Source: a bacterium ADurb.Bin212 (GTDB taxonomy: Bacteria; Patescibacteriota; UBA1384; XYA2-FULL-43-10). Taken from it: DNA of 64,000 nucleotides. The DNA lies in the NCBI GenBank assembly GCA_002070055.1, contig MWCM01000005.1, forward strand, positions 2,015 through 66,014. The letters run 5' to 3'. Positions 7,377-54,506 of this stretch are shown here, in pieces (the stretch's first letter is position 1; every line of letters starts with the position of its first letter). The notes below the pieces were generated by a model. The model saw only the letters and a list, made by a program, of their open reading frames with translations, did not search any database and was not told the origin of the DNA. The position numbers were made by a program, and so were the translations under genes.

Positions 7377-9665
7377 TTACTCAAAATGTTTTGAGCTGTT
7401 AAAGACCTCTAATTCATTTTTGATTAGAGGATAAGTATTTTTCCAATTTTCTTCTTTGACAATCATTTCGGAGGTTTTTGTGGCGGCTTGTATCAAATGC
7501 TGATTACTTAAATCTGCAAATTTAAGATTTAAATAACCGCTTTGCTCTAAACCAAATATATCACCGCCACCGCGATTATTTAAGTCCTGCTCTGCTAAAC
7601 GGAAGCCATCGTCAATCTGCTCTAGCGCTTTTAGCCGAGACATAACTTTCTCCGAGTCCGAAGAAGTAAAGAGAAAGCAAAATGATTGGTGTTCGCCTCT
7701 ACCCACTCTGCCTCTAAATTGATGAAGCTGAGCTAAACCAAACCTCTCCGCATCTTCAATCATCATTATGCTGGCGTTCGGCACATCCACACCTACCTCG
7801 ACCACCGATGTGCTAACTAGAATATCAAGTTCAGCAAAAGAGAATTCAGACATGATTTTCTCTTTCTCTTTTGCTTTCATTTTGCCATGCAACATACCAA
7901 TTCTCAAATCTGAAAACACGTTGTTGCTTAGATTCTCGAATTCACCAACCACCGTCTTGCGGTCAATTTCTAACAGATCCATTCCATAATTTTGATTTTT
8001 GATATTTGATTTTTGATCTTCAGAATTCTCATCAATAAGTGGAACAACCACAAAAACCTGCCTGCCCGCTTTAACATGGGCTCTGATAAAATCGTAGGCT
8101 TTTGGGCGGTTTATCTCATCAACCACTCTGGTCTTTATTGGCTTGCGATTTTTAGGCTTCTCTCTTATCACACTTACATCCAGCTCCCCAAACACAATCA
8201 ATTGTAAAGATCGGGGTATGGGAGTAGCAGTCATGGAAAGAAAATGAGGAACCAGACCAGGATTTAGCTTGTTAGCTTGTAGCTTTTTAGGATCAAAGTT
8301 AGCTTCTAACAGTACTCCAGTTCCTTTGTTTTGATCCCTCGAAGCTACTCGGGACAAGTTTTTGATTTTTACACTTTTATTTTCTCTCAGTGCCTGGCGC
8401 TGATTCACTCCAAATCTGTGTTGTTCGTCAACAACAACTAAAGCCAAATTCGGAATCTTTTCCAGAAAGAGTAAAGCATGGGTGCCTATGAGAATCTTTG
8501 GCTTATCAAGGTTTATGCCAGCTCTCAGTTTTTTGTTTGACGATACTATCAGCTCCGCCTCAACATCTTTTGGTAACAAAGATTTAAAAGTCATAAAGTG
8601 TTGTGATGCTAAAATTTCTGTTGGGGCCATTATGGCGGAACTTTTCCCTTCGTTATATGCAGAATAAGCGGCCATCACAGCCAAAACTGTTTTTCCGCTA
8701 CCCACGTCACCGTTTAGCAAACGATTCATCGGAGTATCTGTTGCCAAATCGCCCGCAATATCTTGCCAGGCGCTTTGTTGGTCGGCGGTCAGTGCAAAAG
8801 GCAAATTCTCCATCAACCGCCGCACTGCTTCTGTGCCGGTATTAATTTTTGGGGCTTGATCTTTTTTAAGCTCCTGCTTTATTACCTTACCGCGCAAAGA
8901 TATAAGGAACAATTCATTAAAAGCCATTCTGCTTTTGGCTTCTTCTAGTTCTTGCATATTCTTTGGCTCGTGCAAAATCCTTATTGCCTTATCCAGCGGC
9001 AACAATTCATTTTGTTCAAGAATACCCTCTGGCAAATAATCTTTAATGTCTTCAATTTTATTTATTAGACTTTTTATTAGCTTTGCTATGTAATGAGTAG
9101 TTACCCCATTTGTTTCTCTGTAGACAGCAACAATCTTAGGCCTGTCTGCCCAATCCGGTGATTCCATAACATAATCTTGCCCGAAGGGGTCAAATTTTAC
9201 CTTGCCGTTTAGAATGATTTCTCTACCTAAACCAAGCATTTTAGAGAGGTAGGGTTGATTAAACCAGACTACTTTTATAATGCCCGTTTCATCTTCGACT
9301 ATCGCCTCGGTAACAGTAAAACCCCGCCTGCGCGTTTTTTTATTGGCAATGCCTACAATCCTAGCTTTAATTGTTAAATTGCTAGAATTGTTAAATTGCT
9401 CTCCTGTTATTCCAGAAGAAACCCCAGCACCCTCTTTTGTCACTTTGATGCTTGATGTTTCATTGGTTATTGAATATTGATTATTGGATCTTGCGATATC
9501 CGAAATTTTGCTGATATCGCTATAGTTCAAATACTTCCGCGGAAAATAGTAGATTAAATCACCAATCGTCTCTACGCCCATTTTAGCCAATTTCTTGGCT
9601 GTTTTCGGCCCCACCCCGGGCAAATACTGCACCGGAGTATCAAATTTTTCTTTCTGTGTGTCCAC
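7377..9665 (-). CDS. recG: ATP-dependent DNA helicase RecG (with low-complexity insertions)
   Basis: HhH LPGVGPKTAKKL at the N-terminus, Walker A DVGSGKT, DEQHRFGV (DExH), and FRGRVGRG motif VI. Insertions encoding NIKNQNYG and similar. Confidence 0.9.
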   Translation of the reverse strand: MDTQKEKFDTPVQYLPGVGPKTAKKLAKMGVETIGDLIYYFPRKYLNYSDISKISDIARSNNQYSITNETSSIKVTKEGAGVSSGITGEQFNNSSNLTIKARIVGIANKKTRRRGFTVTEAIVEDETGIIKVVWFNQPYLSKMLGLGREIILNGKVKFDPFGQDYVMESPDWADRPKIVAVYRETNGVTTHYIAKLIKSLINKIEDIKDYLPEGILEQNELLPLDKAIRILHEPKNMQELEEAKSRMAFNELFLISLRGKVIKQELKKDQAPKINTGTEAVRRLMENLPFALTADQQSAWQDIAGDLATDTPMNRLLNGDVGSGKTVLAVMAAYSAYNEGKSSAIMAPTEILASQHFMTFKSLLPKDVEAELIVSSNKKLRAGINLDKPKILIGTHALLFLEKIPNLALVVVDEQHRFGVNQRQALRENKSVKIKNLSRVASRDQNKGTGVLLEANFDPKKLQANKLNPGLVPHFLSMTATPIPRSLQLIVFGELDVSVIREKPKNRKPIKTRVVDEINRPKAYDFIRAHVKAGRQVFVVVPLIDENSEDQKSNIKNQNYGMDLLEIDRKTVVGEFENLSNNVFSDLRIGMLHGKMKAKEKEKIMSEFSFAELDILVSTSVVEVGVDVPNASIMMIEDAERFGLAQLHQFRGRVGRGEHQSFCFLFTSSDSEKVMSRLKALEQIDDGFRLAEQDLNNRGGGDIFGLEQSGYLNLKFADLSNQHLIQAATKTSEMIVKEENWKNTYPLIKNELEVFNSSKHFE
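7990..8018. repeat. TTTTGAT/ATTTGAT heptamer tract in frame inside recG
   Basis: TTTTGATTTTTGATATTTGATTTTTGATC. Encodes QKSNIKNQNYG on the minus strand. Confidence 0.6.
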
Positions 9666-9672
9666 AATTATG

Positions 9673-9703
9673 CTTAATCCTTAATTCTGTATTCTTAATT
9701 CTC
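9673..9703. repeat. TTCTTAATTC-type repeat immediately upstream of the recG start
   Basis: CTTAATCCTTAATTCTGTATTCTTAATTCTC. Confidence 0.5.
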
Positions 9704-9783
9704 TATTCCATTTCGCTTTTTGCATAATACATTTTGCATTTTGCATTAAGCATTGTATTAATTATACCCTCAAGCTCCGTAAA

Positions 9784-9812
9784 TTGACAAACTTTGATTT
9801 TTATTATATAAT
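9784..9812 (+). promoter_or_regulatory. consensus sigma70-type promoter TTGACA-N17-TATAAT upstream of the Lnt-like gene
   Basis: Exact TTGACA (9784-9789), a 17-nt spacer, exact TATAAT (9807-9812). Followed by a leader with a 12-bp inverted repeat (CCTTTGAGCCTA...TAGGCTCAAAGG) and AGGAGG 6 nt before the ATG at 9975. Confidence 0.5.
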
Positions 9813-9974
9813 GATATAATTCGCACGCAGCGAAGTGTGTTTTTTGTGTACCTTAACAACTTTTCCTTTGAGCCTAATTAGGAATTAGGCTTTAGGTCTT
9901 AGCTTTTTTGGATAACCTAATTTCCAGCTAGGCTCAAAGGAGTAAAAACAAATCCCCTCAGGAGGGACGCCGCC

Positions 9975-11288
9975 ATGATCGAAACACTGCACATCGCGGC
10001 CGCCTTGGCGGCCATCCTGTCGTTTCACGTCGCATTCAGGTGGGAGAAGGCGGGCGGGCTGATTGTTGTGTACATGGCCTGCCTCTTCTTCCTAACCGGA
10101 GTCCCCGACCCCTTGCGGGCGGGGACGTTGGGCATGGCCATCGGGTTGGGCACTGTGCCCTTCCAGATGTGGTTTATGCTCAGATTCCTGGGAGGGAAGG
10201 CGCTTGGCCTGTGGCTCTACATGAGCTCACTGCCGGCGATCTTTCTCCTGCTGTCCTCGTACCTTAGGGGCAGCCACGAACTTATGGTGCTCGCTGTCCC
10301 CTTCGTTTGGAGCATCATCGAAGTGGGAAGGAGCGAGTGTGGCAGGTTGCGCTACAGCTGGCTCATACCGGCTCATGCGCTTTCCGCTAGGCCGTGGATC
10401 AAGCTCCTCGGAGCAGGTGTCTACGGTTTCAGCTTCCTCGTCATGGCAGCCCTTGCGCTCTGCGCGGTGCTGCCGGCCTACCTCTGGCCGGTCGTCGTTG
10501 GGGCAGCCCTTGGCGCCTTGATCGTTCGGCAGAGCCCCTTCTGGACGCATAAGCACCTTCAGGTGGCCGGCTTCCAGATTGAGGCAGGCGTGGACGGCGG
10601 CACGGGCCTGCGTTTTGCAGGATACGACGAAATCCTGCGCCAACTCCACCGCTGCCTCCACCGCCACCCCAACGCCGAACTGGTAGTGGCACCCGAGTAC
10701 GCGCTACCAGACCAACCCGAGGCAATGCTTCTGGCATGGTGCCGAAAGTTCGGCAAGTGGCTGCTTATCGGCGGCCGGGAACACCTTGACGACGATGGCG
10801 GGTTCAGAAACACCGCCTATCTCGTCTCCCCCCTCGGAGAGGTATTCCGGCAGGGCAAAATGGTGCCCATACCCACGGCACCGGACGGTCTGCCCGCCAC
10901 CGAGCAGAAGCCGCTTCGTAACTCCTTGGGCACTCTTGGCATCTGCATCTGCTACGACCTAAGCTTCGCCTCGGTCGTAGCACCGCTCGTTGAGAGTGGT
11001 GTGCAGGCGCTGGTGGTGCCATCAATGGACCTTGCGGAGTGGGGTCCGCACGAGCACCGGCTTCACGAGAAGTGGGCGAGGATTATGTCCTACGTCTACT
11101 CCTTGTCGGTGTTCCGTGTGGTCTCCTCCGGCCAGTGCCAACTGGTTGATTGCGGAGATGTCCTTGCGGTCAGCCAGGACGGCACCATCGGCGACAACTT
11201 GCCCATGCACTTGGGCGAAGTGCCTACCGACTGGAGGATCCTCCGCCACCTCCTTCCTCCGCTCGTGCGCGCGCCGAGTGAGGAGTAA
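9975..11288 (+). CDS. lnt: apolipoprotein N-acyltransferase (Lnt)-like: polytopic N-terminal domain plus C-terminal CN-hydrolase domain; high-GC
   Basis: About 6 TM helices, then a nitrilase-superfamily domain. Candidate catalytic residues are Glu in LVVAPEYALP, Lys in FRQGKMVPIP and Cys in LGICICYDLSF. Visibly GC-rich relative to the flanks. Confidence 0.7.
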   Translation: MIETLHIAAALAAILSFHVAFRWEKAGGLIVVYMACLFFLTGVPDPLRAGTLGMAIGLGTVPFQMWFMLRFLGGKALGLWLYMSSLPAIFLLLSSYLRGSHELMVLAVPFVWSIIEVGRSECGRLRYSWLIPAHALSARPWIKLLGAGVYGFSFLVMAALALCAVLPAYLWPVVVGAALGALIVRQSPFWTHKHLQVAGFQIEAGVDGGTGLRFAGYDEILRQLHRCLHRHPNAELVVAPEYALPDQPEAMLLAWCRKFGKWLLIGGREHLDDDGGFRNTAYLVSPLGEVFRQGKMVPIPTAPDGLPATEQKPLRNSLGTLGICICYDLSFASVVAPLVESGVQALVVPSMDLAEWGPHEHRLHEKWARIMSYVYSLSVFRVVSSGQCQLVDCGDVLAVSQDGTIGDNLPMHLGEVPTDWRILRHLLPPLVRAPSEE

Positions 11289-11312
11289 CAACTTCTGCGC
11301 ACAGAACACGGA

Positions 11313-11352
11313 AGCCCCGCTCTACCTCGTAGAGTGGGGCTTCTTGCTTTTC
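11313..11352 (+). terminator. intrinsic terminator after the Lnt-like gene
   Basis: GCCCCGCTCTAC-CTC-GTAGAGTGGGGC hairpin followed by TTCTTGCTTTTC. Confidence 0.5.
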
Positions 11353-11392
11353 TATCTTGATTTTTTCGGTGATTGTGTTAATATGCGGTTAC

Positions 11393-11640
11393 TTGCAAGA
11401 GGTTTGAGGGCGGCGCTTCGGCGGCATCTCCAGCGGTAGCCTTGGCATCACAAAGGACATCCGCACGAGCTAAGTTTGCTCGGGAGGCCCAAGTAAACCG
11501 CAGCCATTCCTTTTGCAAGGAGGTCAGCCCGCCTTTCGGGTGAACCGGGGTAGAGAGCGTTGTAGCAATGTTGCTGTTACACCCCGCCAGCACTCATTGC
11601 TGCTCTCTACCCACCTTTTTTAAGTCAAGAGCTAGCGGCT
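11393..11640 (+). ncRNA. candidate structured RNA or leader (GC-rich, promoter-like start, tandem terminators at the 3' end)
   Basis: Promoter-like TTGATT-N16-TAATAT (11359-11386). About 250 nt of GC-rich sequence with long inverted repeats. Ends with a GGGTAGAGAGC...GCTCTCTACCC hairpin plus TTTTTT, and a second hairpin AGAGC-TAGCG-GCTCT plus T8. Class not identified. Confidence 0.3.
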
Positions 11641-11711
11641 CTTTTTTTTGTTTTAAAAATAGATTCCATGTTATGATTTGAATAATAGATCAATTAAATA
11701 GTGAGGTATAA

Positions 11712-12083
11712 ATGCCAGGCGAAACAATCGGACCCGTATTAGAAGCAGAAACAAACAACCCAGAGAAAGAAGAGCAGCCAATAGGTGCTGGACCATATTT
11801 TTTAGCAGGAAAACCAAAAAATGAAAGCTATTTAGGAGATAATACCATAATTACTCTAGCTGTATGGCACGGCACACCGGTTTTAGCTCCCAGCAGCCAA
11901 CTGGATCGTGGCCTAGAGCTAGATGTAACAGTTGCCACAGACGAAAAAGAAGAACTAAGAACCGAAAACGGTGGTTATGATATCGGTGGTATATATAAGC
12001 TGGAAGACGGAGAACTTATCACCAAAAGAGCATACGAAAATAAATACGGCACAACTAATAGAACCGAAGAAATAGCCGCTTAA
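11712..12083 (+). CDS. hypothetical protein (123 aa)
   Basis: ORF with RBS GTGAGGT before the ATG. Followed by a terminator. No motif. Confidence 0.4.
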   Translation: MPGETIGPVLEAETNNPEKEEQPIGAGPYFLAGKPKNESYLGDNTIITLAVWHGTPVLAPSSQLDRGLELDVTVATDEKEELRTENGGYDIGGIYKLEDGELITKRAYENKYGTTNRTEEIAA

Positions 12084-12090
12084 AATTATT

Positions 12091-12119
12091 AAAAAATGAG
12101 CTTTTAAGCTCATTTTTTA
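12091..12119 (+). terminator. intrinsic terminator (ATGAGCTT..AAGCTCAT hairpin plus T-run), potentially bidirectional
   Basis: Palindrome flanked by an A-run and a T-run. Confidence 0.5.
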
Positions 12120-12159
12120 AATTATGTAATTACTTTTGTGATATTTGATATTTGATATT

Positions 12160-13404
12160 TTATTTTTCTATCGTTCCCCCGCCGATCACTTCGTCTCCAA
12201 TAAAAAACACAGCGCTCTGGCCGGGGGTGACGGCTCTCTGTGGTTCATCAAATATTACCTTAATCGTTCCTTGCTTAATTCTTAATCCTGAGTTCTTAAT
12301 CTTGCAACCCACACTTTTCGCCTGTGATCGGATTTTGACTGATAAGTTAGTAGCGGGTAGCGGGTAGTGAGTAGGGACATTGATCCAACTTAAATTAGAT
12401 ACAACCATCTCTTTCTTATAAATCTCGCTATCTTCCCCGACTATTAACCGGTTTTTTGACCGATCAAACCCAGCCACATACAAAGGTTTTTTATCATAAA
12501 GGGATTCCTCGGCTTCTCGCAAAACCTGCGAGTCGCTCGGAATGACAGTATTAACGTTCTTCAGTTCTTTGGTTTCTCGGTTCTTAAGTTGTTGGTTAAT
12601 TCCCCTCCTCTGTCCTATCGTATAATTAATCAACCCTTCATGCCTTCCCACAATATTACCTCCTGTATCAACAATATCTCCTGACTCAATACAGCTGTCT
12701 TTTACCTCATTCTTTAAAAATTCCCGATAATCCGTATTTTGCAAAAAACATATCTCTTGACTCTCTTTTTTTTCGGCAACTGGTAAATCCCATTTTTTCG
12801 CCAGCTCCCTCACCTCTTTTTTGGTTAATTCACCAAGAGGAAAGATTACTTTAGATAGTTGCTCTTGATTAAGCCGGTAAAGCATATAAGACTGGTCTTT
12901 GGAGTTATCGAATCCAGCAAGTAAATGATAAATTGTTGTATTGTTAAATTGTTTTTTATTCGAATAATTAGAATTTGGATATTTATTGGTTATTGCGCCT
13001 TGGTTATTGGTTGTTTCCGAATCTTTGATTCTGGCATAATGTCCTGTTGCCAACTTTGCACATCCAAGTTTCTCTGCCTCACCTATGAGTAGCTTAAATT
13101 TGATCTCCGGATTACAAATCGTGCATGGATTCGGAGTGCGCAAATTTTTGTATTCGGAAACAAAATACTCTACCACTACCCTTTTGAACTCTGCTTCTGC
13201 ATCAATCTCATAGAACGGGATCTTTAGAAACTCTGCCACCTTTCTAGATTCAAGCAGACCATCATCTACGCCATCATGCTTCCACATCTTTAAAAAGAGC
13301 CCGATTACATCGTAGCCCTCATCTTTTAATATTTTTGCTACTGCAGCACTATCTACGCCCCCGCTTAAGGCTACAGCGACTTTTATTTTGGAATTATGAA
13401 TCAT
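12160..13404 (-). CDS. mnmA: tRNA-specific 2-thiouridylase MnmA (with low-complexity insertion)
   Basis: PP-loop VAVALSGGVDSAAVAKIL near the N-terminus, and C-terminal domains typical of MnmA. The longer ORF extension to 13485 runs through mini-repeat sequence, so I prefer the ATG at 13404. Confidence 0.85.
   Translation of the reverse strand: MIHNSKIKVAVALSGGVDSAAVAKILKDEGYDVIGLFLKMWKHDGVDDGLLESRKVAEFLKIPFYEIDAEAEFKRVVVEYFVSEYKNLRTPNPCTICNPEIKFKLLIGEAEKLGCAKLATGHYARIKDSETTNNQGAITNKYPNSNYSNKKQFNNTTIYHLLAGFDNSKDQSYMLYRLNQEQLSKVIFPLGELTKKEVRELAKKWDLPVAEKKESQEICFLQNTDYREFLKNEVKDSCIESGDIVDTGGNIVGRHEGLINYTIGQRRGINQQLKNRETKELKNVNTVIPSDSQVLREAEESLYDKKPLYVAGFDRSKNRLIVGEDSEIYKKEMVVSNLSWINVPTHYPLPATNLSVKIRSQAKSVGCKIKNSGLRIKQGTIKVIFDEPQRAVTPGQSAVFFIGDEVIGGGTIEK
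12274..12305. repeat. TTCTTAATTC-type repeat in frame near the mnmA 3' end
   Basis: CTTAATTCTTAATCCTGAGTTCTTAATCTTGC. Peptide KIKNSGLRIKQG. Confidence 0.5.
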
Positions 13405-13420
13405 GAATAATGAATAATGC
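13391..13420. repeat. family 1-related repeat (GAATTATGAATCATGAATAATGAATAATG) at the mnmA start
   Basis: Same GAATAATGAAT units as the other copies. Overlaps the mnmA start codon region. Confidence 0.5.
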
Positions 13421-13453
13421 AAAATACTATAATTCGCTATTCGCAACCCGTTA

Positions 13454-14266
13454 TTATACTTTTTTCTGCGCGGCAGAAACCACATTCTTCATAAGCATCG
13501 CTACCGTTACCGGACCAATTCCACCTGGCACTGGCGTATAATATGAAGCTTTTTTATAACAAGCCCCATCCACATCACCGGCTAACTTTCCGCCCACTTC
13601 GGTTGTTCCGGCATCAATTAGTACAGCACCCGTCTTGATCATATTTGGTTTAATAATATCGGCCACTCCGGTTGCCGAAATTATAATATCTGCATCAAGG
13701 GTTATTGTGCCCAAATATGGCGTGTCCTTGTAGGCGATTCTAACCTCATTAGCGGTTCTCTCCAACATCCTGGCAATAGGCGAACCAACCAAGAAACCCT
13801 TACCAATAATAGCTACCTTTGAATCTGCCAGATTAACACCGGATCTTTCTATAGCTTGCATTATCGATAAAGTAACAGGAGGGCGGAAATCGCAACTCAG
13901 ATTGCTACAAAACCTAAGTCCATCAACATCTTTTTCTGGAGAGATAATTGAAATAATATCAACAAGATCAAATTTTTTCGGCATCGGAACCTGAACCATT
14001 ACTCCCACGACTTTTTGATTTTCGTTCAACTCCTTGATACGTGTTTCTATCTCTGTTTTTTCGACATTATCAGAATACTTAATTAAGTCAAAATGAATCC
14101 CAACTTTCTCGGCGGCACGTTGCTTGACCTCAATGTAACGAGCGCTGGCGAAATCATCACCGACCCAAATAACAGCCAAGACCGGCTCGACCCCTAATTG
14201 ATCAACCTGAACTTTAAGTTGATCTAAGATTTCATCCCTAATTTTTTTGCCATCAAAGTAATTCAT
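13454..14266 (-). CDS. folD: bifunctional methylenetetrahydrofolate dehydrogenase/cyclohydrolase FolD
   Basis: YIEVKQRAAEKVGI, GKGFLVGSPIARML and PVPGGIGPVTVAMLMKNVV motifs. Start taken at MNYFDGKK. Confidence 0.9.
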   Translation of the reverse strand: MNYFDGKKIRDEILDQLKVQVDQLGVEPVLAVIWVGDDFASARYIEVKQRAAEKVGIHFDLIKYSDNVEKTEIETRIKELNENQKVVGVMVQVPMPKKFDLVDIISIISPEKDVDGLRFCSNLSCDFRPPVTLSIMQAIERSGVNLADSKVAIIGKGFLVGSPIARMLERTANEVRIAYKDTPYLGTITLDADIIISATGVADIIKPNMIKTGAVLIDAGTTEVGGKLAGDVDGACYKKASYYTPVPGGIGPVTVAMLMKNVVSAAQKKV

Positions 14267-25978: not shown

Positions 25979-26987
25979 AGACATATTTAAAAAATCCTCT
26001 TCACGAAGAAAAATCGATAGATCTGAAGGAGAAGAAAAAACTCCGGATATTATTTTGAGCACAAACAAGGCCATTGAGATTTTGTCGACACAAAAGCAAC
26101 ATCTAAATTCCAAGCAAGTTGAATTAAGTCTAGACAAAAAGCGTCTTAATAGAAAATTAGACCGCCAGATATTAAGAATCCACAGAACAAAAGAGCAAGT
26201 TGAAAAAAGGATAGAGTTTGTTCGAAACGGCGGCGCCAGGATTTCAATTCCATTCTTAAAGAATTCTGATCTATTTCTGCGCAGAAGACTTCTCTGGTAT
26301 AGGAATTGGCACAACAATTCAATCTCACCCAAACTTCACTTAACCGCCCTTGGGTCTTATCTAATAATCTCTGTCTTTTTAGCTATCATATTTATGCAGG
26401 GTGTGCCCAATAACACCTCCGCCCTTAATTCTGAACACCGTAAAACCTCTTTAGTATCTGCCATCTACACACCAGATAATCTGTCGCTTAAAAATAGCAA
26501 AGTGCAACTGCCTCAAGACGAGAAGCCGATATCTACTTTATATGAAGACAATTTAGCCGTTGACTTTTCCGATAAATCAAGCAAATTGGCCAGTGCTAAA
26601 ATTCGAACCATGGACAAGAACAAGCAAGAGCAATGGGTTGAATTTGTCTTGTTGCAACCGAAGGATTTACAACAACCCAGCTCTGAAAATATCAGCTCGA
26701 ACTCTTTAGTAAGCGCTTCAGCACATGCCGAACCGGACAATAGCCTGGTTGAGGCAAATATCGTTGATGTCACCAAAGAGATCAATAACAGTATAGTAAC
26801 CCTGAATGTTAATAATGCTGTTGCCGCAAAATATGAGGTCTCAAGCAACAATAGTCAAGCCACAGTTAAAGAGACTTTAATTATAGAAGACATTAGCGCA
26901 TTTAGTAAAAATCCCGACTATACGATCTCTTTTAGAGTAAAAACTCAAGGTCTAGCAATAATTCAAAAAGAAAACGGTGCCTATTAG
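25968..26987 (+). CDS. hypothetical coiled-coil/single-TM protein, translationally coupled on both sides
   Basis: Overlaps the TPR gene by 11 nt and the giant gene by 11 nt. Charged coiled-coil N-terminus and TM helix LHLTALGSYLIISVFLAIIFMQGV. Confidence 0.4.
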   Translation: MALKDIFKKSSSRRKIDRSEGEEKTPDIILSTNKAIEILSTQKQHLNSKQVELSLDKKRLNRKLDRQILRIHRTKEQVEKRIEFVRNGGARISIPFLKNSDLFLRRRLLWYRNWHNNSISPKLHLTALGSYLIISVFLAIIFMQGVPNNTSALNSEHRKTSLVSAIYTPDNLSLKNSKVQLPQDEKPISTLYEDNLAVDFSDKSSKLASAKIRTMDKNKQEQWVEFVLLQPKDLQQPSSENISSNSLVSASAHAEPDNSLVEANIVDVTKEINNSIVTLNVNNAVAAKYEVSSNNSQATVKETLIIEDISAFSKNPDYTISFRVKTQGLAIIQKENGAY

Positions 26988-29900
26988 CTTATCTGATTCT
27001 AATGGTTTAACGGTAATGAACATTGAGCCGCCAGTAATTGAAGACAACCGTGGTACCAAAGGTCAAATTAGCCTTGAAATAGTTGACGATGTCGCAACTT
27101 ACTTTATTGATAAAGACTACATCGAAAACGCTGAATATCCGATATTTCTTGACCCTACCGTAACGGTATCAACTTCAACTATCACAAATCCTAATTCATA
27201 TGCCAAAGACCGTACACTCTTAGAAACCAGTGACGGGACATTGGTGAATATATATTCTGACGGTGCCGCCATTAATTATCGCACCTCGTCAGACAAAGGA
27301 GCCAACTGGAGTTCCGCAACAAAAATAACAGATTCAGCAAATGCCGACGATAACGGCTTCTCCGCATGGATTGATGTGGATGATAATATCCATCTTACTT
27401 ACTCGGACAACAACACGAATCCTTACATATTTTACCGTCGCTTGTCTTACAGTTTTGCCACAACTGTCGTCTCAATCGGTGCAGAAAAAACCGTGGAATC
27501 ATCAGGGACCAGCCGTATGTATCCCTCAATTGTAGCCACAGAGTCATCAAACACTATTCACGTCGCTTACCGTTATTACGACGGAAGTGATTACACAATT
27601 AAAGTTAAGTCTAGCAGTGATTTTGGTGATAATTGGAGCGCCGCCTCTACTCTCTCTCCCGCTACCAATGCCAACGCCGCAACCTATCCCTGCGCAATTC
27701 TTTGGAACGACAAACCGGCAATTATTTATAATTATCAAAACGCCTCATTACGTTGGAATTATTACAACGGTAGCAGTTGGCAATCAGAAGGCTGGGACAA
27801 TGAATTGATAACAGCTGAAGTTGATGCTGATACCGGGCTAGAATTTACTGCAATAGAGTCGCCATTCAACAACTATCTACATCTTTCGTGGAGAGGAAGC
27901 GGCACTAACGGCATCAGGTATCTAAAAAACAACAATTCCGTAGCCGGTTGGGATGGAACCTCAACCGCCATAACTGCAGACCATAACGATAGATTTCCAA
28001 GTATTGGCGCCGGCACAAATGATTATATTAACCTTTATTACTCTGATTATGTTGGAGCTAATTCATATAATATCAAGTATATCTCTAAAAGTAGCGCAGG
28101 GTCTTTCGGGGCTGTTAACTCTGTGACCACGGATGACGCAAATAATTTAGTCTCTCATGCTGCCCAGAAAGCAACTTATTACAGGAACAATTCTTTGCTT
28201 TTTGATGGCACAGACGACCATGCCGACCTGCCAGATGGATTCTCCGATTTTACCGGAGGTTTAACATTGGAGTTGTGGGCATATCCTACCGCAGCGCAAA
28301 ATTACGCAAGATTTTTTAATTTTAGCAACGGCGCTCCAAATAACAACATTGTTTTTGGACGCACCGGCACAACGACGAATTTAGCATTTATTGTATGCAA
28401 CGGCACGAGCAGTTGCCCCACGGCAGTGACTGCCACTGGGGTACTTGAACTTAACAAGTGGCAGCATTTTGTCGTCACTCAAAGCGCAGCCGGAGCTGTG
28501 ACCATATATAAAAATGGAGTAAGCGTTGCCACCGGGACTCAGAATATCCCTACAAACATTACTCGCACCATAAATTATATCGGCCGAGGCGCTTGGGTAA
28601 CCGATTCATATTATAAAGGCAACATAGATGGGGTAAGAATTTACAATCGCAGCATTAGTTCAGGAGAGGTTACAGCACATTACCGTAGCGGAATCGGACC
28701 TAAAAAAATCCCCACAGATACAAATCAACTCGCGGCATATAATTTTGATGAGACCAGTGGCACCTCTGGCGCAGACGCTTCGGGAAATTCTATGACTGCC
28801 ACCCTTGTTTCTGGCCCCTCAAATCAGCACAATAGTGTGCCTTATAAAAATTCTAATAATTACGCAATCTACTCCCCCAACTCAAACGGCTACATTTCCA
28901 TTCCCGCCAATGCCTCAACCAATACCAACACAACCAATTTTACAATGGAAGCGTGGGTAAAGGCTAAATCTACCGGCGCTTGGCGTTGGATAATGGGCAA
29001 AAATAATAGTGGTAATTGGCTTGGCATTAACTCGGGCGGATATTTAAACTTTTCCACTGCCGGAGGAGCCAATAATATCTCCTCTACTGCTTATGTTACC
29101 GACGAAAAATGGCACCACGTGGCTGCAACCTTCGACACCGGCACTCTTAAGTTATATATGGACGGCAAAAACACCGATACTTGGACAGGGAAAAGTGTAT
29201 CTGCCCAAACCGGGGCAACTTATATCGGCTATAACGGATATGAATATTATTACGGTTGGATTAACGAAGCAAGGCTTTGGACAAAAACACTATCGGCCGC
29301 TGACATACTTAATCGATTTTCTGCCGGCTTGTTTGCAACTGGTGCACCAGAGGCTAATTTAGGCGGTGGCTGGTCTATGAACGATGCTTCCGGCACTACC
29401 GTAGCCGACTTTAGCGGTAATGGTAATACTGGATCGTTTGTTAACACCCTCTATTTCGATAACGTATTAAAAACCACTCTTTCGACTCCTTCCGTTACTT
29501 TTGTTGAGGGCACAGGTTCACCATACAATATTAAGTGGGGGCCTAAAGCAAAAGTATGGACTGGCATGGGAGCCAACACCAACTGGACAACCGCAGAGAA
29601 TTGGAGCGACGGTGTTGCACCAGTAGGCGGTGACAACCTGTTGTTTGACGGCCCAACCGGTGGCAGTTCGGTTGCCGATTCAGTACCGGACAACCTTGGT
29701 TCCATAGAAATTGTTAAGGAGAGCAGCATAACATTATATTTCAGCAAACATCCATCTACAAACGTTGACACTTTTAAAATTAACTTAACCGGTGATTGTA
29801 TTTTTAATGGGGGCATAGTTCAATCTGAAGGTGATACTACCGTCATGCACGCAGGAATTACAGATGGCCAAGGCAACGAACTATCCGCGTCCAATATTTT

Positions 29901-32900
29901 TGTCGGCCCCTCTGGCATCATTAATTTAGATGGTCTTGGCTTTCCTGCCAGGCAAGGTCCGGGACGCATATACCTGACAAACGACGAGAGAGGTTCCGGG
30001 CATGGCGGACAAGGTGGCGGGAGCCCCTATGGCGGCACAGCTTATGGCGACTTCTCGGACCCTGTTTCACTGGGCAGTGGAAACTACCGTGTAGCCGGAG
30101 GAGGCGCTTTAAAACTTAACGCCAGCCAGTCAATTATATTAGATGGTTCGCTAAGCGCCAACGGCTTAAGTAATTATGGCGGAAGCGCCGGAGGATCTTT
30201 TAATATAAGCGGAACCTATATTGCTGGAGTGGGTAGTGTTAAGGTTAATGGCGGAGCCGGAGACTATGGGACCGGCGGTGGCGGAAGAATTAAATTATCC
30301 TCAAACACTAATAATTTTATCGGCACATTACAGGCCAAAGCAGGAAATCAATCCGCCGGTATCAACGGAGGCGCAGGCACGATATTTAAAAAACTAGCTT
30401 CACAGACTTACGGCGATTTAATTATCGATAACGGCGACGCCACTCAGAACGGGCGCAACCAAACCTCAGCCTATTTAAAAGGCTCAAGTGGCGATACGGG
30501 CAGTTACCAATTTGATTCAATTACATTTAATAACTACGGCAAACTCGAGATTATCTCCGGACAAAGTTTAGCACTTAACAGTGGCACTATTACTGGTACC
30601 AAAACAGCGGGAGTAATAAATGCCGGAACAGTAAGCGTGCCGGACAACTGGTCTCTCAACTACTTCTATTCACATAAAAATGGCACATTATCCGGATGGA
30701 CTCAAACAAATTTAACAATAACCTCTGCCGGTAAATTAACTCATTATATCAATGATTCTACAGACACCTATGGCCTTAATCTAACACTAGATAGTCTAAC
30801 CGTAGATAGTGGAGGTGAGATTGACGTTAGTGAAGTAGGATATGCTTCGCAACAAGGCACAGGCAAAGGTAAGGTTATTACTGGTGGTTATGGCGATGGT
30901 GGTGGTTACGGAGGAGAGGGAGGACGAAACGACACCGATATGACTAGAAGTAACCCTTATGGAGATTATTCTAATCCAACTGAACTTGGTAGTGGCGGCG
31001 CTTACTCAGGTGGCGGCGGCAAAGCTTTATTAACCATAACTGGGACAGCCACAATTAATGGCAGTCTGCTCGCAAACGGACAATCAGCAAACTCCGGAGG
31101 GTCGGGTGGAAGTATTAATTTATCGGCTGCCACAATCACCGGCGGCGGCACAATCACGGCCAATGGTGGTTCGGGTGGCACAATTTACTCCGGTGGCGGC
31201 GGTGGTGGCAGGATACGTCTTGCCTCTACGGCCAACACTTTTAGCGGTACTCTAACCGCCCGAGGAGGCACAGGCTATAGTAGCAATTATTCAGGTGGGC
31301 CAGGAACTATCTATAAAAAACTTTCCAGCCAAAGCTATGGCGATCTAATTATTGATGATAACGGCAATACTCACCACAATAGATATTTTATGGGGGCATA
31401 CTTAAAAGATAAAGCTGACAGCGGTAGCTATCAATTTGATTCAATACAATTCTCTAATTATGGAAAACTTGAAGTTTTAGGAAGTCAGATAATTAATGCA
31501 ACTGCAACAACTATTACCGGCGACAAAAATTCCGGTTTTTCAAACGCTGGCACAATTAATCTACCCTCTACATGGAACCTCTCCTATTTATATATGCACA
31601 AAGGGGGCACAATAAGTGATCTTGCTAATAAATCGATTGTAGTGACATCAACCGGCTTCCTGACACATTATTTTAACAACTCCGAAGAGACATATTCAAT
31701 AAATTGGACATTAAATTCAGTTGAGGTGCAGACTAACGGCGAAATTAATACTACAAACAATGGTTATGCCGCCAATAATGGCCTCGGGCCCGGAGCATCA
31801 GCTGGCACGCCTTCTGGCTCTGGTGGTGGTGCATACGGCGGAAACGGTGCTGCTGGCACAGTTGGTGCAGGCGGAACTGCCTACGGCTCGGTAACAAACC
31901 CGACCAATCTTGGTTCAGGTGGCGGTGGCGGAGCTAATGCCGGTGGCGGTGCAATTATTCTAAATGTTAATACTCTGAATTTGTCCGGAACACTTGCCGC
32001 AAACGGAGCTGATAGTGCCGCCAATGATTACGCAGGAGGTGGTGCAGGGGGCAGCATAAATATCACTGCTAATACAATCAGTGGTTCTTCTGGCTCAATT
32101 ACTGCTAACGGCGGCTACAGTAAATGGAGAGGTGGCGGTGGCGGTGGCGGTAGAATTGCCATAAATTACACCACTGACTCATACACAGGCGGTCTATCGT
32201 CTCTAGCAATCTCCGCCAAAGGCGGCATGAACGGAGTGACTTGGGGTGAAGATGGTACACGCAAAGGTGCCGCCGGAACTATATATATCAAAAAAACCTC
32301 CGATGCTTACGGCAGTCTGAAGATTGATAATGCTGTAGCCACCACTACTGTAGCTAGGACCCCTTTGACTCTTCCATTGGCTTATAGCAATGTTACAATT
32401 TCTAATTACGGCAAAGCTACCATATCGACCAACGCTGATACGGCTCAGAACACTTTGGCCGTGAACGGAAATTTAACCGTGGGTGCAAACTCCGAGCTGA
32501 TACTCAACTCCGATAACGATGGCACTCCTGCCGCTGGGGCTTGGCCAATTATTACTGTGACTGGTGATGCTAATATTTCCGGTTCTGTTACCTCTAACGC
32601 TACCGGCTATATACATGATCTGGGCAGTGGCAAGGGCAACATAAGCGGTTCTTATGGTTCTGGTGCAGGGTATGGCGGCAGTGGTGGCAATTCCGCCAAC
32701 GGAGCAATTGGTGGGGTAACTTATGGCACAGAACGTGACAATAACTATATTGGAAGCGGAGGCGGTGGGGCAAATGGTGGGGCAGGTGGCGGCATGATAA
32801 AAATGTCGGTATCCGGATCTCTTGATCTAAGCAACACCGGAACTATTGCAAGCAACGGTGGAGCTGGGGGCACAGACGGTGGCGGTGGTTCTGGAGGTTC

Positions 32901-35900
32901 AATTCAGATCGTTTGCACTACTCTATCCGGCTCGGCTGGTAGCACCATCTCAAGCAATGGCGGAGCCGGAGGAGCAAATGGTGGCGGAGGCGGTGGTGGT
33001 AGAATAACAATTTATCCATCCAATGATAGTTATCTTGGCACTCTAACGGCAACCGGCGGTTCCGCCGGTTCTGGTGGAGCCACTGCTGGAACAAACGGCA
33101 CAGCAATTATTCAACACACACCTGGCTCCCTGACTATGAACTCACCTAACGACGCCGCTACTGATCAAATACAAAAAACAGTATTTCGCTTTAACTCGAC
33201 AGACATCGACAACGACTGGATACAATACAAATTACAGATTGCCGCAGATATAAACTTCAGCGATGGCGTTTCCACCTTTGACCAAACTCTCTCTCAAAAC
33301 CCAAGTAGTGGAGGTAGAAGCGCAATATTCTCCAATCAAGACAGAACCACGGGCAATGTCGCCGGAAGTGACGGATACTCTTCGGGCAGAGAAGCAATTC
33401 TCACACTGCAAACAAATCTGACTCAGGCAAGAACATACTATTGGAGATTCTACGCTTATGATCCAGAAGGAGTCGACTCTTTTGACGGCAGCCAGCACTG
33501 GTCACCAGCTTCAAGCATCAGATCGTTTACTGTTGCAAGCATCGACCATATTTCGTTCTCGACACCCCAACAAGAGAGCGTTGTTACTTTCTGTTCTGCA
33601 GTTATGACTGTAAATTTAAGAGACTCGAGTAATAACAATATCTACTTAACAGAGGACGACGGCCCCACAGCACTACAACTTAGCGCTGATTCAGCTTCAG
33701 GCTCATTTTATTCCGATTCAGATTGTGAGACGGCTATACCTAGCGATCAGGTTATAGTTGCAGTTTCTGGTAACTCTGCCAGTTTTTTCTACAAGGACAA
33801 CCAACCTTCGCCGGTAAACAATTATTTTACAATCACGGTTGCTGAAACACCATCTGAAGGATTAACAGATGCTACTCAACAGATAAGAATTAAGCCAGGC
33901 GATTTAGGGTCTTTTGAAATATCAGGGGCTCCGGTATCAATAGTTGCCGGTGCGGCTTTCTCTTCTCCAACAAACGACATTACCGTAACTGTAAAAGATA
34001 TTTTTGGGAACACAAAGAACGATTGGACCGGGCAAATCTGGTTCTATTCCTCCGATTCGCAAGCTGATTTAGTCTATGACGACTCAAATAAATATTCATT
34101 CACTTCCGGCGAAGGTCTGGATAACGGCACACACACTTTTGATGGCGGAAACTTCGTCTTAAAAACCAAAGGTAATCAATCTTTAGTAGTCCACAACTCA
34201 AGTGGTGGTGAATACGACGAAGTGGTAGCTATAACCGTTAACCCTGCGGCTATAGACCACTTCTCTCTCAGCGACTACCCACGCACAGCCAGCGGAAAAT
34301 TCGCCATGAGTTCTTTTTCTTGGGACACACCAGGATATTCAGACGCTCCATACGACCCGATTGTCACAGCATACGACCTTTACGGAAACATAAAAGATGA
34401 TTATGTTGGAGAAACATGGTTTGAACTCTACAAATCCACCGATGCGGCCGGTAATCCTTTGGATTCTAGCGCAAATTATGCCTTTGATTACGATTATACT
34501 AATCACTATACTTTTACCTCGGGTGACGGATTAGATAATGGCACTCACACTTTTGATGGCTCCGGCTTTACAGTAGTAACCGCAGCCAACGATCTACGCC
34601 TCAGAGTAAAAACTTCGGCGAATGGAGGTGTTTACACCGACTTTACGATAACAGTGAAGCCTCAATCGATTGACCACTTCCTTATTAGCTCAACTCCAAC
34701 CCTCTCCAGAAATGGAATAGATTGGGACAAAGAAGTAGACGAGGAGTTCATCGAAGACATCACCGTCACTGCATACGATACCTTTGGCAATGTAAAAACA
34801 GATTATTATTATAACGACGCAACAAAAGCCGGCATGATCTACTTCTATTCAAGCGACCCGCGCGCCGTACTTCCCTATTCCAAAACAGTCAGCACAGATT
34901 CCTCTGCCTGTTTAGCCTTCCCGCAAGCTGCCAACGGTTCTTATACTTTAGATACAACCAACACCCCCTTAAACTACTTTAAATTCTTAACAGGGGGGCC
35001 ACAAACGATCTCAGTTTCAGAATGTATTGATCCTACCTCTGCATACGCCACTGGAACTGATAATAAATATGACCCTAGGCTCGAAGGAGTAAATCCGCTC
35101 AAAGTTATGGCCGCAACGGGCCAAATCCCCGCCACAGGTGATGATCCAAATAAAATATTTGTAGCTAATCATGTGCCCGGCTCAACCCACACAGCAGTCG
35201 ACCATTCTGACGATTCGAACGATCTTATCGAAGCTGGACCAGGCCATGAGCAGGCAACTCTTTCTTGGACTAATCCCTTTGATATCCCAAGCGACCCCGC
35301 TCTTGACGCTCAGGCATATATTTATCGTTGCACAACAAACTGTGAAAATATCGCAAACTTTAGTAGGATTATTACAGATCCGGCCACAATTAGCGTAACC
35401 GCTGGAGAAGTTTCTGAATACACCGATACAGGGCTAACAAATGGAACCGAATATTTTTACAAGCTCTCTTATGCTTATAAACGACAGGATGATAGTTATA
35501 TCGAGAGCAACAAATCAATCACAGTCAGCACAACTCCGGCAGACATTGCACCAAGAAATATCTCTGCCTCACAACTTGATATAAGTGACAGCACAAACCC
35601 GGGCAAGGTAAGAGTGGACTATCAACTACGTTGGGATTCGACTGTTTCCTTGGCATACTATAACCCTGCCACCAACTCATGGCATAATGCATCACCTAGC
35701 GCCATGAGCGGAGATGTGGGCCCCGGCATCACTGGAGATGAAGCACTAATATCTCACACCGCTTATTTGGACCCTAACATTGATTTCGACGGTCAATATT
35801 TAACCGATACCTTTAAGGTTAGGGTTAAGGTAACAGTCAACTCAGCCAGCACTTATGCCGATTCAGCGACTCTTGATCTTGATTCAAAAAATCCGGCTGG

Positions 35901-37689
35901 CGCCACCCTGGTTGTGGATGCGACAGACGGCAACAGCGCCGATCTTACCTTTTCTGCCTCGGATAATAATGAGCTATCCATGAAAGTCGCTGGAGATCCC
36001 GACTTTACTGGAGTAGACTGGCAAGCGTTTACCGAAACAATCGAAGATTTTGGAATCAACGGTATGAACTCTGTCTATGTAATTTATAGAGATTCTTTTA
36101 ATAACACCACAACAGTAGAACAAGAAATTTTTAGCGCGCCACAAAACGTAAGCATTAAGGACGGTTCAAGCGCGGCGTCACAGACATATCGGCTACTTAT
36201 TACTTGGGATGATCTAATACCAATGCCGGAACATTACAATGTTTTTCGTTCAATAGATGGCGAAAATTACTCTCACTACGACACCACTGTTAAAAACGCC
36301 GCAATTGATATTAATCTTGATCCGGATACGCTTTACTCATATAAAATTCAAGCAGAAGATGGGGCCGGCAATAAATCAGCTCTATCGGATGCCGTTTCGT
36401 CACGTCCGGGAACCGCCCCCGACGTAACCGCAGACCCGGCAGTTGAGTTGTTTGGCTGGAAACAAGATGTGGGAGTAAGAGCAAGGATTACTTGGGATAC
36501 CGACCAGAACTCCGATTCTTTTGTCGCTTTTGCCAAAGAGCCGATTAAAAGCGGTTCCGTATTAGATACCGAGTCAGGCAACGAAGATGCAGTCTCTGTA
36601 GTTGGATCCCCCGATATGGTAACATCGCACGAGATAAATCTCTCCAATCTGGAGCCATCGACTAAATATTATTTTAAGGTATTATCTAAAAACGAAATTC
36701 AGATCACCGGCTACTCAGATGTGTTTGAGTTTACTACCCCGGAAAGAGTTTTGCTGTTAATTTCTGGCATGAAAATTACCGACATTACCAATAATTCAGC
36801 ATTTATCTCTTGGACCACATCAAAAATATCAACCAGCTTGGTTGAATATGGGCAAACCAGCCAGTATGGTGAAACAATTGAGGACCTGAGCCAGAACACC
36901 GAGCATAAATTCAAGCTGGAAAATCTGATATCAGGAGACTACCATCTTCGGGTCAGCGCCAGAGATGTAGATGGCAATTTAACTATCTCTGACGAATATA
37001 TCTTCAATATTCCACCAACCCCTACTATTACAGATATAGCCATCACTGACATTAGCGACAACACTGCAAAAGTTTCTTGGAGCACAAATGTGTCATGTAA
37101 TTCAAATGTCGATATTGAGAGCGATAGTGGCAACGGCTCACAAGGCAATGCTAGTTATACTACAAGCCATTCTGTAAACCTTGTGGGGTTAAGCGCCAAA
37201 ACCAACTATACCTTGAAGATAAGATCAGTTGACACATACGGTAATACTGCTATCTCGGAGAGCAGACAGATTACTACCACCGCAGACTTGTTTGCCCCAA
37301 AAATTATTAACCCTAAATCAGAGATAACTTCAACCGGATCAGGTGAAAACATTAAATATCAGTTGATTGTATCGTGGGAAACAGATGAGCCGTCTACCAG
37401 CAAAGTTGAGTTCGGCCAGGGTGTTGGTAATGCCTACGAATCATCCAGCAAAGAGGAGTTGTCCTTAAATATGACTCATACAATAATTGTTACTGATCTA
37501 AAACCAAACTCTGTTTATCACTTTAGAATAAAAAGTGGCGATAAAGCCAATAATGTCGCATACTCTGATGATTACACTATTACCACCCCACCCAAAGAAA
37601 AAGACATTATTAGCATAATAATAAACGCTATTGTCGGGCCTATGAACGATATCTACCAGGGAGTAATTAATAAGTTATTCAAAAGGTAA
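26977..37689 (+). CDS. giant (3570 aa) multidomain surface protein: BNR/sialidase-like N-terminus, LamG-like lectin domains, three Gly-rich beta-helix-like super-repeats, four C-terminal FN3-like domains
   Basis: A single uninterrupted 10.7-kb ORF. Asp-box/BNR repeats ([18 protein letters not shown]). LamG-like blocks ([13 protein letters not shown]...LELWAYP...[17 protein letters not shown]...[10 protein letters not shown]...LKLYMDGK). Periodic [11 protein letters not shown]...TANGGSGG...[10 protein letters not shown] units. C-terminal FN3-like modules ([17 protein letters not shown]..., [16 protein letters not shown]..., [19 protein letters not shown]...). Confidence 0.8.
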
Positions 37690-45074: not shown

Positions 45075-45134
45075 AACCCTCCTACACTAAAATATGATAA
45101 AATTATTTATATATTGAGGACACAAAAAACTATT

Positions 45135-46025: not shown

Positions 46026-46319
46026 CTTTGGGATATCATCCCCTTTCTTCGGCCGCTTGCACCACGGCCAGTGATACTGCCCGCAATACGGGCAGGGTTG
46101 CTTGCGCCGGTTGGGGTAACCTACCGGACGCGGGGGCACTACGGGTCCAACGGGCCCGATCGGCATAGTATCCAACCCCTTTCATTTTCAACGGTTCTGA
46201 ATTGGCAACTTTTTATAACATTTTTTGACGATATTCGCAACATTTTTTGCTTTACAAATTTTGCAAAAAGTTATAGTATTACTTATCGTCGCAACATCGA
46301 CTCCAAGCGAGGTAAAGCC

Positions 46320-51875: not shown

Positions 51876-51904
51876 TTGACTTAAATTGTATTTTGTGCTA
51901 TAAT
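51876..51904 (+). promoter_or_regulatory. near-consensus sigma70 promoter TTGACT-N17-TATAAT upstream of the muramidase-amidase gene
   Basis: TTGACT 51876-51881, a 17-nt spacer, TATAAT 51899-51904. AAGGAGG RBS at 51985-51991, 8 nt before the ATG at 52000. Confidence 0.5.
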
Positions 51905-51999
51905 TGCTTAATTCTCTAAAGCAGAGATATATTTTTTGTTGCATAAAAATACTCCCTGCTTCAGCAGGACAAGCATCACAATCGAAGGAGGCGAGGCGC

Positions 52000-54470: not shown

Positions 54471-54506
54471 GATAATTATGTGGAAGAAAATAACATAGGA
54501 GTTTTT

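Follow-up and report, generated by a model that had tools for sequence, protein, structure and literature searches.

The Lnt-like locus and its features

We analysed a 64,000-nucleotide stretch of contig MWCM01000005.1 from bacterium ADurb.Bin212 (the window), which carries a GC-rich gene whose product resembles lipoprotein N-acyltransferase (Lnt). The Lnt-like gene points opposite to its neighbours, recG and mnmA, has a consensus sigma-70 promoter and a structured 5' leader of its own, and ends at a hairpin resembling an intrinsic terminator (Table 1). The window as a whole has about 40% GC and the open reading frame (ORF) has 62%. Around the start codon, over about 40 nt (approximately 9960-10000), GC content climbs from 0.30-0.48 to 0.59-0.66, and it drops again after 11300, in agreement with the abrupt switch from an AT-rich leader into a GC-rich coding sequence described in an earlier reading of the same DNA (the original prediction). 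The window sequence recurs without differences as part of contig JAKJEL010000001.1 (GCA_022705445.1), and the identical protein is on record twice, also as OQB06223.1 of bacterium ADurb.Bin212.

Relatives of the protein were sought by a word-indexed search of 5.8 billion proteins, which gave 15 homologues, and by an exhaustive HMMER search of 1.84 billion representatives, which gave 1289 at E up to 1e-3; only about 10 clusters among them are of the window's own type. The DNA compared in detail comprised the window and the related loci L002, L009, L011, L012, L013, L014 and L015, which represent eight of the nine lineages of a single clade. A hairpin comparable to the one that ends the Lnt-like unit lies 3' of the gene in L012, L014 and L015.

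Table 1. Positions of the features discussed. Coordinates are those of the window unless a related locus is named.
Feature	Position	Strand	Remarks
Lnt-like promoter, TTGACA-N17-TATAAT	9784..9812	+	sigma-70 consensus, 12/12 match
Hexamers of the Lnt-like promoter	-35 TTGACA 9784-9789; -10 TATAAT 9807-9812	+	17-nt spacer
recG-facing promoter-like site, TTGTCA-N18-TATAAT	9761..9790	-	11/12
Small 5'-terminal hairpin, TTCGC-acgca-GCGAA	9820-9834	+	by folding
U6 run	9840-9845	+	3' of small hairpin
Single-stranded leader motif GTACCTTAACAA	9848..9859	+	conserved
Long leader hairpin, base UCCUUUGAG / CUCAAAGGA	9863..9942	+	conserved base, variable interior
Shine-Dalgarno sequence AGGAGG	9960..9965	+	9 nt before ATG at 9975
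Lnt-fold membrane acyltransferase, coding sequence	9975..11288	+	437 aa; GC 0.62; GC at third codon positions 0.77
Intrinsic terminator-like hairpin	11310..11344	+	16 pairs, T-rich tail; ends Lnt-like unit
Second GC-rich unit	11357-11651	+	directly past Lnt-like terminator
recG	7377-9665	-	upstream neighbour of Lnt-like unit
mnmA	12160-13485	-	downstream neighbour of Lnt-like unit
UbiA-family prenyltransferase	41903-42709	-	GC-rich
M23 peptidase	46071-47036	+	GC-rich
PlsY fused to NAD-binding-like domain	48837-50693	+	GC-rich
Amidase_3 protein	ORF 51904-54009, probable start 52000	+	GC-rich
GC-rich gene following the Lnt-like gene in relatives	L002 11623-12099; L009 2378-2977; L011 about 3553-3822

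Fold and active site of the protein

The product had been predicted to be Lnt-like, with a polytopic domain, a CN-hydrolase domain and a Glu/Lys/Cys triad, and this description held up. The two family searches proposed with it gave different results: CN_hydrolase (PF00795) was the sole match in Pfam and passed its cut-off (25.2 bits against 23.2), but TIGR00546 (lnt), the sole family match in NCBIfam, scored 56.2 bits and so stayed below its equivalog cut-off of 132.9. A single-sequence search of the PDB matched only soluble nitrilase-superfamily enzymes, with K295 and C326 aligned to the catalytic Lys and Cys of mouse Nit2. An alignment of 13 family members contains 48 invariant columns, including E241 (within PEY), K295, C326-Y327 and D304-G305. 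The profile made from this family matched E. coli Lnt (E = 6e-14) over the membrane domain (residues 22-209) and the C-terminal nitrilase half and put C326-Y327 on C387-Y388 of the E. coli enzyme; of the E. coli triad, to which an alignment had been suggested, the cysteine was placed in this way.

An AlphaFold2 model built from the family alignment, with a predicted local distance difference test score (pLDDT) of 89 and a predicted template modelling score (pTM) of 0.89, has seven N-terminal transmembrane (TM) helices followed by a nitrilase sandwich. The best 24 Foldseek matches in the PDB were all Lnt chains that fit over the full length, with TMq values of 0.73-0.79, and soluble nitrilases came next in the ranking with TMq of about 0.4. 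The protein ends 25 residues past the last strand, and its C-terminus is modelled as a short amphipathic helix (residues 418-431, containing Arg and Pro) in place of TM8. As judged from alignment and model, the protein has the fold and active site of Lnt and belongs to a divergent subfamily. Against TIGR00546, members of the clade score 34-70 bits and the relatives from GC-rich genomes described below score 81-102 bits; because these relatives also fall under the cut-off, they and the low-GC clade together make up one divergent Lnt-like subfamily.

A conserved promoter and a structured leader

The exact sigma-70 consensus claimed for the promoter was confirmed, and it is the single exact match to TTGACA-N16-18-TATAAT in the window (n=1, compared with 0.05 in shuffled sequences). 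The same exact consensus occupies the orthologous position in L009, L012, L014 and L015/L016, and L011 (TTGACT) and L002 (TATATA) are each one mismatch away from it. Transcription is predicted to start near 9819. The promoter-like site that faces recG lies back to back with the Lnt-like promoter in such a way that their -35 hexamers overlap (ATTGACAA, on both strands), and the same ATTATA...ATTGACAA layout was seen by eye in L009, L014 and L015. Since overlapping -35 hexamers leave no room for two RNA polymerases, this layout suggests that simultaneous binding is excluded and that divergent transcription of recG and the Lnt-like gene may be mutually exclusive. The intergenic region between the two genes also contains short repeats: approximately eight tandem copies of TTGCTAC(T) in L015 (about 1690-1750), and related CTTAATTCT repeats in the window (9666-9702).

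From this promoter the gene would be transcribed through a conserved 5' untranslated region (UTR) of approximately 155 nt made up of a 5' hairpin, a U-run, a GUACCUUAACAA motif, a long hairpin and a strong Shine-Dalgarno sequence. The small hairpin, with differing sequence, and the U run are also present in L009, L011, L012, L014 and L015. The motif GTACCTTAACAA occurs once exactly in the window, where near matches elsewhere are at chance level only, and GTAYYTTDACAA is present in 7 of 7 leaders. In the same seven leaders a long hairpin follows GUAYYUUDACAA at the same position, with an interior that varies in both sequence and length, from about 50 to 200 nt; L002 is without it. A GUAAAAAC-like motif lies 3' of the long hairpin in four leaders, and L009, L014 and L015 have a strong Shine-Dalgarno sequence at the place equivalent to that of AGGAGG in the window, which had been recognised correctly. 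The original prediction had also described a 12-bp inverted repeat in the leader; the repeat is real but forms merely the base of a hairpin with arms of 26 nt each (9864-9889 and 9916-9941, 85% complementary).

Several measurements bear on how strongly this leader is conserved and structured. The segment of about 88 nt from the -35 hexamer to the hairpin base is 69-85% identical across six lineages whose proteins are 32-49% identical and whose silent sites are saturated. The window's leader folds more stably than its shuffles (z = -3.3). When seven leaders are aligned by hand, anchored on the flanking motifs, 10 of the 13 basal pairs of the long hairpin show compensatory changes on both sides and 89% of cells are paired, a result that 0 of 500 shuffles reached and in which L013 supplies much of the signal; slid registers pair at 26-54%.

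No family was found for the leader when the whole window was searched in Rfam at gathering score or when 9650-12200 was searched at E up to 10, and the few Rfam 15 hits listed for the leader are chance-level miRNA and sRNA models. A search of 241 million metagenome records with the pattern TGTAYCTTDACAAY-N2-4-TCYYTYGRG returned six hits, all attributable to chance: none is followed by a Lnt-like gene, and in none does the similarity extend beyond the pattern. A reading of the hairpin as an integron attC-like element was dropped on account of the missing integrase, the fixed position between promoter and Shine-Dalgarno sequence, and the synteny in all lineages. Retention of both the consensus promoter and the structured leader at orthologous loci argues that they are in use. 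The leader is probably an element controlling mRNA stability or translation, the long hairpin possibly serves as an RNase III-type stem, and the whole is a candidate new structured RNA absent from Rfam.

Conservation of the locus and relatives of the gene

Upstream of the Lnt-like gene lies recG at seven of the eight loci, the contig of L013 being too short to show the neighbour, and mnmA lies downstream wherever the contig extends far enough (window, L002/L003, L011 and L015). Proteins of the clade are 32-50% identical among lineages and share two features, loss of TM8 and an EAGxD...LRF insertion. In a neighbour-joining tree with 45 relatives from GC-rich genomes, the nine clade proteins form one split in 50 of 50 bootstraps. 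Between the window and L002, nine of ten flanking orthologues are 43-64% identical and the tenth, ComEA, 38%; the Lnt-like proteins of the two are 50% identical.

The depth of this conservation also bears on whether the locus could be an artefact. The window derives from a metagenome-assembled genome (MAG) and the composition of the gene is very atypical, as an assembly chimera or contamination would explain. We give this account almost no credence, since the identical protein is found on two recorded contigs and the same junction of AT-rich and GC-rich DNA, with homologous promoter and leader, recurs in independent JGI, ENA and Logan samples.

The nearest relatives outside the clade are 33-39% identical over approximately 90% of the length and come from contigs that are GC-rich throughout. 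One of these contigs (L005) has 62.5% GC, a Lnt-like gene with a third-position GC content (GC3) of 0.72 and Planctomycete-type PSCyt1/PSCyt2/PSD1 neighbours; a second (L010) has 68% GC, and the protein P0012 is named as from Verrucomicrobiota. When contigs were scanned with a profile of the clade, a single distant relative of high GC content came up, and no relative was found on viral contigs. A foreign ancestry of the gene is plausible. It would have entered once, into the ancestor of a low-GC, sortase-bearing lineage, from a GC-rich donor whose surviving kin are of Planctomycetota/Verrucomicrobiota type, would have become fixed beside recG, and would have been passed down there ever since, perhaps with some exchange among members of the lineage. 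The actinobacterial-type donor proposed originally finds no support in these nearest kin or elsewhere in the searches, although no actinobacterial sequence was compared directly.

Persistence and probable maintenance of the GC-rich composition

The age of the gene at this locus can be set against its composition. At codons for the same amino acid, identity at fourfold-degenerate sites averages 0.316 over all 28 pairs of lineages, close to the 0.290 expected from composition, so synonymous turnover is complete; the flanking genes give the same picture of synonymous saturation. The GC3 of the Lnt-like gene is nonetheless 0.60-0.77 in eight of eight lineages, and GC at the first and second positions (GC1, GC2) is raised too. 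The surrounding DNA has 0.39-0.48 GC where the flank exceeds 600 nt (that of L013 is only 227 nt), and the flanking genes have a GC3 of 0.31-0.42. By a rough two-state relaxation, the small excess of identity that remains allows at most about 0.2-0.4 as the fraction of any ancestral deviation still surviving; on the same rough reckoning a neutral gene that began with a GC content at fourfold sites (GC4) of about 0.8 would be expected near 0.5 now, against the 0.7-0.8 seen.

These values bear directly on the explanation implied by the original prediction, a recent and un-ameliorated island whose donor was a Gram-positive of high GC content (an actinobacterium). Lnt is known from Actinobacteria, which are monoderms, the compositional step is sharp at the borders of the coding sequence, and the gene points opposite to its neighbours, all of which such an island would account for. 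But lineages with no more than 43-64% identity in their flanking proteins have the gene at the same locus, recG adjoins it in seven of eight lineages, and the synonymous sites of the gene are saturated. Its relatives form one clade with nearest outside kin of Planctomycetota/Verrucomicrobiota type, none of them identified as actinobacterial, and the UTRs are AT-rich and native-looking. The locus also has no integrase, no tRNA junction, no viral relative and no convincing flanking direct repeat. A 23-nt direct repeat with 78% identity does bracket the insert between recG and mnmA (9680-9702 and 12274-12296, 2594 bp apart), but it is probably due to chance, because it is of low complexity (CTTAATTCT-like) and the coding region of mnmA contains one of the two copies. 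A fresh acquisition is therefore very hard to sustain.

With GC3 high past synonymous saturation, a recent un-ameliorated transfer is rejected, which leaves either a gene-specific force that favours G and C or a repeated renewal of the coding sequence from a GC-rich pool. In the second case, cassettes from a GC-rich reservoir would have replaced the coding sequence repeatedly through the conserved leader and 3' end, and each copy would be young. Such replacement would explain why the non-coding flanks of the window and L014 are about 80-90% identical when their Lnt-like proteins are only 34-39% identical, the shared flanks being the recG 5' UTR, the promoter and leader, the last 10 or so codons (LVRAPSE) and the downstream promoter. 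It would also suit the incongruent distance orders of RecG and the Lnt-like protein, and a ComEA-type competence gene adjoins recG. Nevertheless, we find cassette replacement improbable. The clade's genes, in eight of nine lineages, have surroundings that are AT-rich or too short to judge, none of them demonstrably part of a GC-rich genome, and the search of 1.84 billion representatives revealed no GC-rich reservoir with the clade's derived features. The third-codon positions of recG are just 45% identical between the window and L014, so these two genomes are not close and the conservation of their flanks can reflect constraint; the leader, moreover, is 69-85% identical across lineages.

A gene-specific force would hold GC high at all three codon positions through selection on GC itself, selection on GC-ending codons, or GC-biased gene conversion. 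GC-biased gene conversion is a known process in bacteria, though its reported effects are much smaller than the GC difference seen here. Translational selection for high expression is an unlikely candidate, because the genes for S6, EF-P, SSB and GroEL in the window have a GC3 of 0.34-0.39.

Other GC-rich envelope genes in the window

The same force may act on at least four more genes for envelope functions in this genome. The GC3 values of the window's genes have a bimodal distribution: 39 of 44 genes lie at 0.29-0.46 and five envelope genes at 0.64-0.77. Besides the Lnt-like gene these are the UbiA-family prenyltransferase, M23 peptidase, PlsY fusion and amidase genes of Table 1, with GC3 of 0.64-0.69. 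Only four relatives of the PlsY fusion were found in the large protein database. The one in L017 is 62% identical, is saturated at fourfold sites, has a GC3 of 0.64 and lies beside an AT-rich gpsA. At L018, where identity is 81-88%, the order ychF, plsY, gpsA, amidase is retained, with GC3 of 0.64 for plsY, 0.37 for gpsA and 0.68 for the amidase gene. The listed start of the window's amidase (TTG at 51904) is probably too far upstream, because the orthologue at L018 has 668 aa. Ahead of the probable start lie TTGACT-N17-TATAAT (51876-51904), a small hairpin, a U6 run, a second hairpin, AAGGAGG and an ATG at 52000 (+ strand), the same architecture as upstream of the Lnt-like gene.

Tentatively, we suggest that this envelope set (Lnt-like, PlsY fusion, UbiA, M23 and amidase genes) is held GC-rich gene by gene at all codon positions. 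Its borders would be those of the coding sequences, its persistence would extend far beyond synonymous turnover, and its members would be read from native AT-rich consensus promoters with structured leaders. If so, the set would point to a gene-specific compositional force that has not been described. Candidates are selection on the GC of mRNA or DNA, or on deliberately non-optimal codons (in envelope enzymes of foreign origin), and unusually strong localised GC-biased conversion. The foreign-looking composition is common to a functionally coherent set of lipid, lipoprotein and peptidoglycan enzymes.

Weighing the overall explanation

Taken together, we think it reasonably probable that the locus encodes an enzyme of the Lnt family that entered the lineage once and long ago, is expressed through a conserved promoter and leader, and has its GC actively maintained. 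Several observations weigh against parts of this explanation. The TIGR00546 score of 56 bits is far under the cut-off of 132.9, as are those of all relatives tested (34-102), and the protein is missing the C-terminal TM8 of the solved Lnt structures. None of the genes of the 64-kb window is lgt or lspA or encodes a credible lipobox protein. The covariation evidence comes from seven sequences in a hand-anchored alignment. By RecG, L002 is the lineage farthest from the window and by the Lnt-like protein the nearest, and because the two distance orders disagree, inheritance may not have been purely vertical. Finally, the lineage is probably Patescibacteria-like to judge from its gene content, but NCBI lists it under unclassified Bacteria.

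Function and acceptor substrate

The enzyme would consist of an extracytoplasmic nitrilase-fold domain borne on a seven-helix membrane domain. By analogy with Lnt, it would most likely transfer an acyl chain (sn-1) of a membrane phospholipid to form a thioester on Cys326, with Glu241 and Lys295 assisting, and would then pass the chain to an amine acceptor outside the membrane. The default acceptor would be the N-terminus of diacylglyceryl-lipoproteins. A lipobox scan of the window gave only internal fragments of larger genes, and the search for lgt and lspA that the original prediction had called for found neither within the 64-kb window, which leaves the lipoprotein acceptor putative. A sortase gene is present at 45114-45971. 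In the literature on Lnt, Lgt or GC-rich islands in Patescibacteria we found nothing directly relevant.

The acceptor could therefore be a different one. An enzyme of the Lnt fold might serve in remodelling phospholipid to lysophospholipid or acylate amines other than those of lipoproteins (on scavenged host lipids or envelope polymers). This would be in keeping with a score below the equivalog cut-off, the loss of TM8, the lack of lgt, lspA and a lipobox ORF in the window, and a compositional class shared with the lipid and cell-wall enzymes (PlsY fusion, UbiA, M23 and amidase). It would also fit a review (PMC11665869, citing Probst et al. 2020) in which Patescibacteria are said to be without lipid synthesis of their own and enriched in lysolipids, possibly obtained from neighbours. 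On the other side, Lnt is the only NCBIfam family matched and only Lnt structures fit the full length. The protein also retains the Lnt-specific CY(D/E) after the catalytic Cys and an invariant acidic residue about nine positions past the Lys. We take this acidic residue to be the equivalent of E343 of E. coli Lnt. A role in lipid remodelling is a serious rival, and we put another job of this kind in the unlikely range.

If the enzyme does N-acylate lipoproteins, Lnt-type triacylation would reach a reduced, sortase-bearing and probably episymbiotic lineage, and TM8 would be dispensable for an enzyme of the Lnt fold.

The downstream unit and further features of the window

Directly past the terminator of the Lnt-like gene, the second GC-rich unit begins with a promoter-like TTGATT-N16-TAATAT (11357-11384), continues for about 260 nt that have 58% GC and contain no convincing ORF, and ends in a terminator (11627-11643) followed by T8. 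It folds at -111.8 kcal/mol compared with -88.4 in shuffles (z = -4.65), and no Rfam family was matched with E values allowed up to 10. Conservation in L014 covers the promoter and the first 25 nt of the unit. At the corresponding position the relatives have a further gene of high GC content (60-69%), which is preceded by an AT-rich promoter of its own and by a leader about 200 nt long. The product in L002 and L009 is rich in Ala, Thr and Pro and has a signal peptide but lacks a lipobox, and in L011 the ORF there encodes 65 aa rich in Pro and Ser. Homology among the downstream units of the window, L002, L009 and L011 could not be shown. The unit of the window is a candidate for a structured non-coding RNA, or for the orphaned leader of a small secreted-protein gene such as those of L002 and L009.

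Two other genes of the window deserve mention. A single ORF of 3570 aa at 26977-37689 (+ strand), with a GC content of 0.45 that rises locally to 0.51 at about 32-33 kb, probably encodes a giant surface protein; after it come the genes for an ABC ATPase and a MacB/FtsX permease. At 54480-55286 (+ strand) the ORF for ribosomal protein S6 encodes 268 aa, with the S6 domain at residues 12-100 and a long C-terminal extension.

Significance

The locus contradicts the shortcut by which atypical GC is equated with recent transfer, and it is a caution for the use of composition-based filters for horizontal transfer and contamination on MAGs. It offers a concrete case for gene-specific selection or conversion acting on bacterial base composition. 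The gene with its consensus promoter and structured leader is a unit conserved across a deep lineage, and promoter and leader together may form a new cis-regulatory RNA unit in a group whose regulation is almost entirely unknown.

Comparison with known systems

The structures of Lnt from E. coli and P. aeruginosa (5N6H, 5N6L, 5N6M, 5VRG, 5XHQ, 6NWR and 8B0K-P) share with the protein described here the membrane and nitrilase-fold domains and the E-K-C triad. The protein differs from them in being only about 18-20% identical, in having 437 aa rather than 512, in an extra EAGVDGGTGLRF segment at the start of the nitrilase domain, and in its host, which is monoderm-like and sortase-bearing.

Closer in sequence is the GC-rich subfamily of Planctomycetota/Verrucomicrobiota type (P0004-P0039, for example MBI3875776.1). 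These proteins are the closest outside kin, keep the triad and the 48 invariant columns, and are encoded with a similar GC-rich composition. They retain the C-terminal TM helix and lack the insertion, the reverse of the clade described here, and their genomes are GC-rich throughout with other gene neighbourhoods. The actinobacterial enzymes (the N-terminal domain of M. tuberculosis Ppm1, Corynebacterium Ppm2 and Streptomyces Lnt1/2) are a precedent for a Lnt homologue in a monoderm envelope.

The leader resembles the cis-regulatory leaders of Rfam 15 in being a structured 5' UTR between promoter and Shine-Dalgarno sequence. It is unlike a ligand-binding riboswitch in that its closing stem is conserved and its interior, of about 50 to 200 nt, is freely variable. 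The amelioration model of transferred genes (Lawrence and Ochman 1997, cited in PMC12455944) likewise concerns atypical genes of foreign ancestry in genomes of another composition. That model predicts a host-like composition once synonymous turnover has occurred, whereas here GC3 is still 0.60-0.77.

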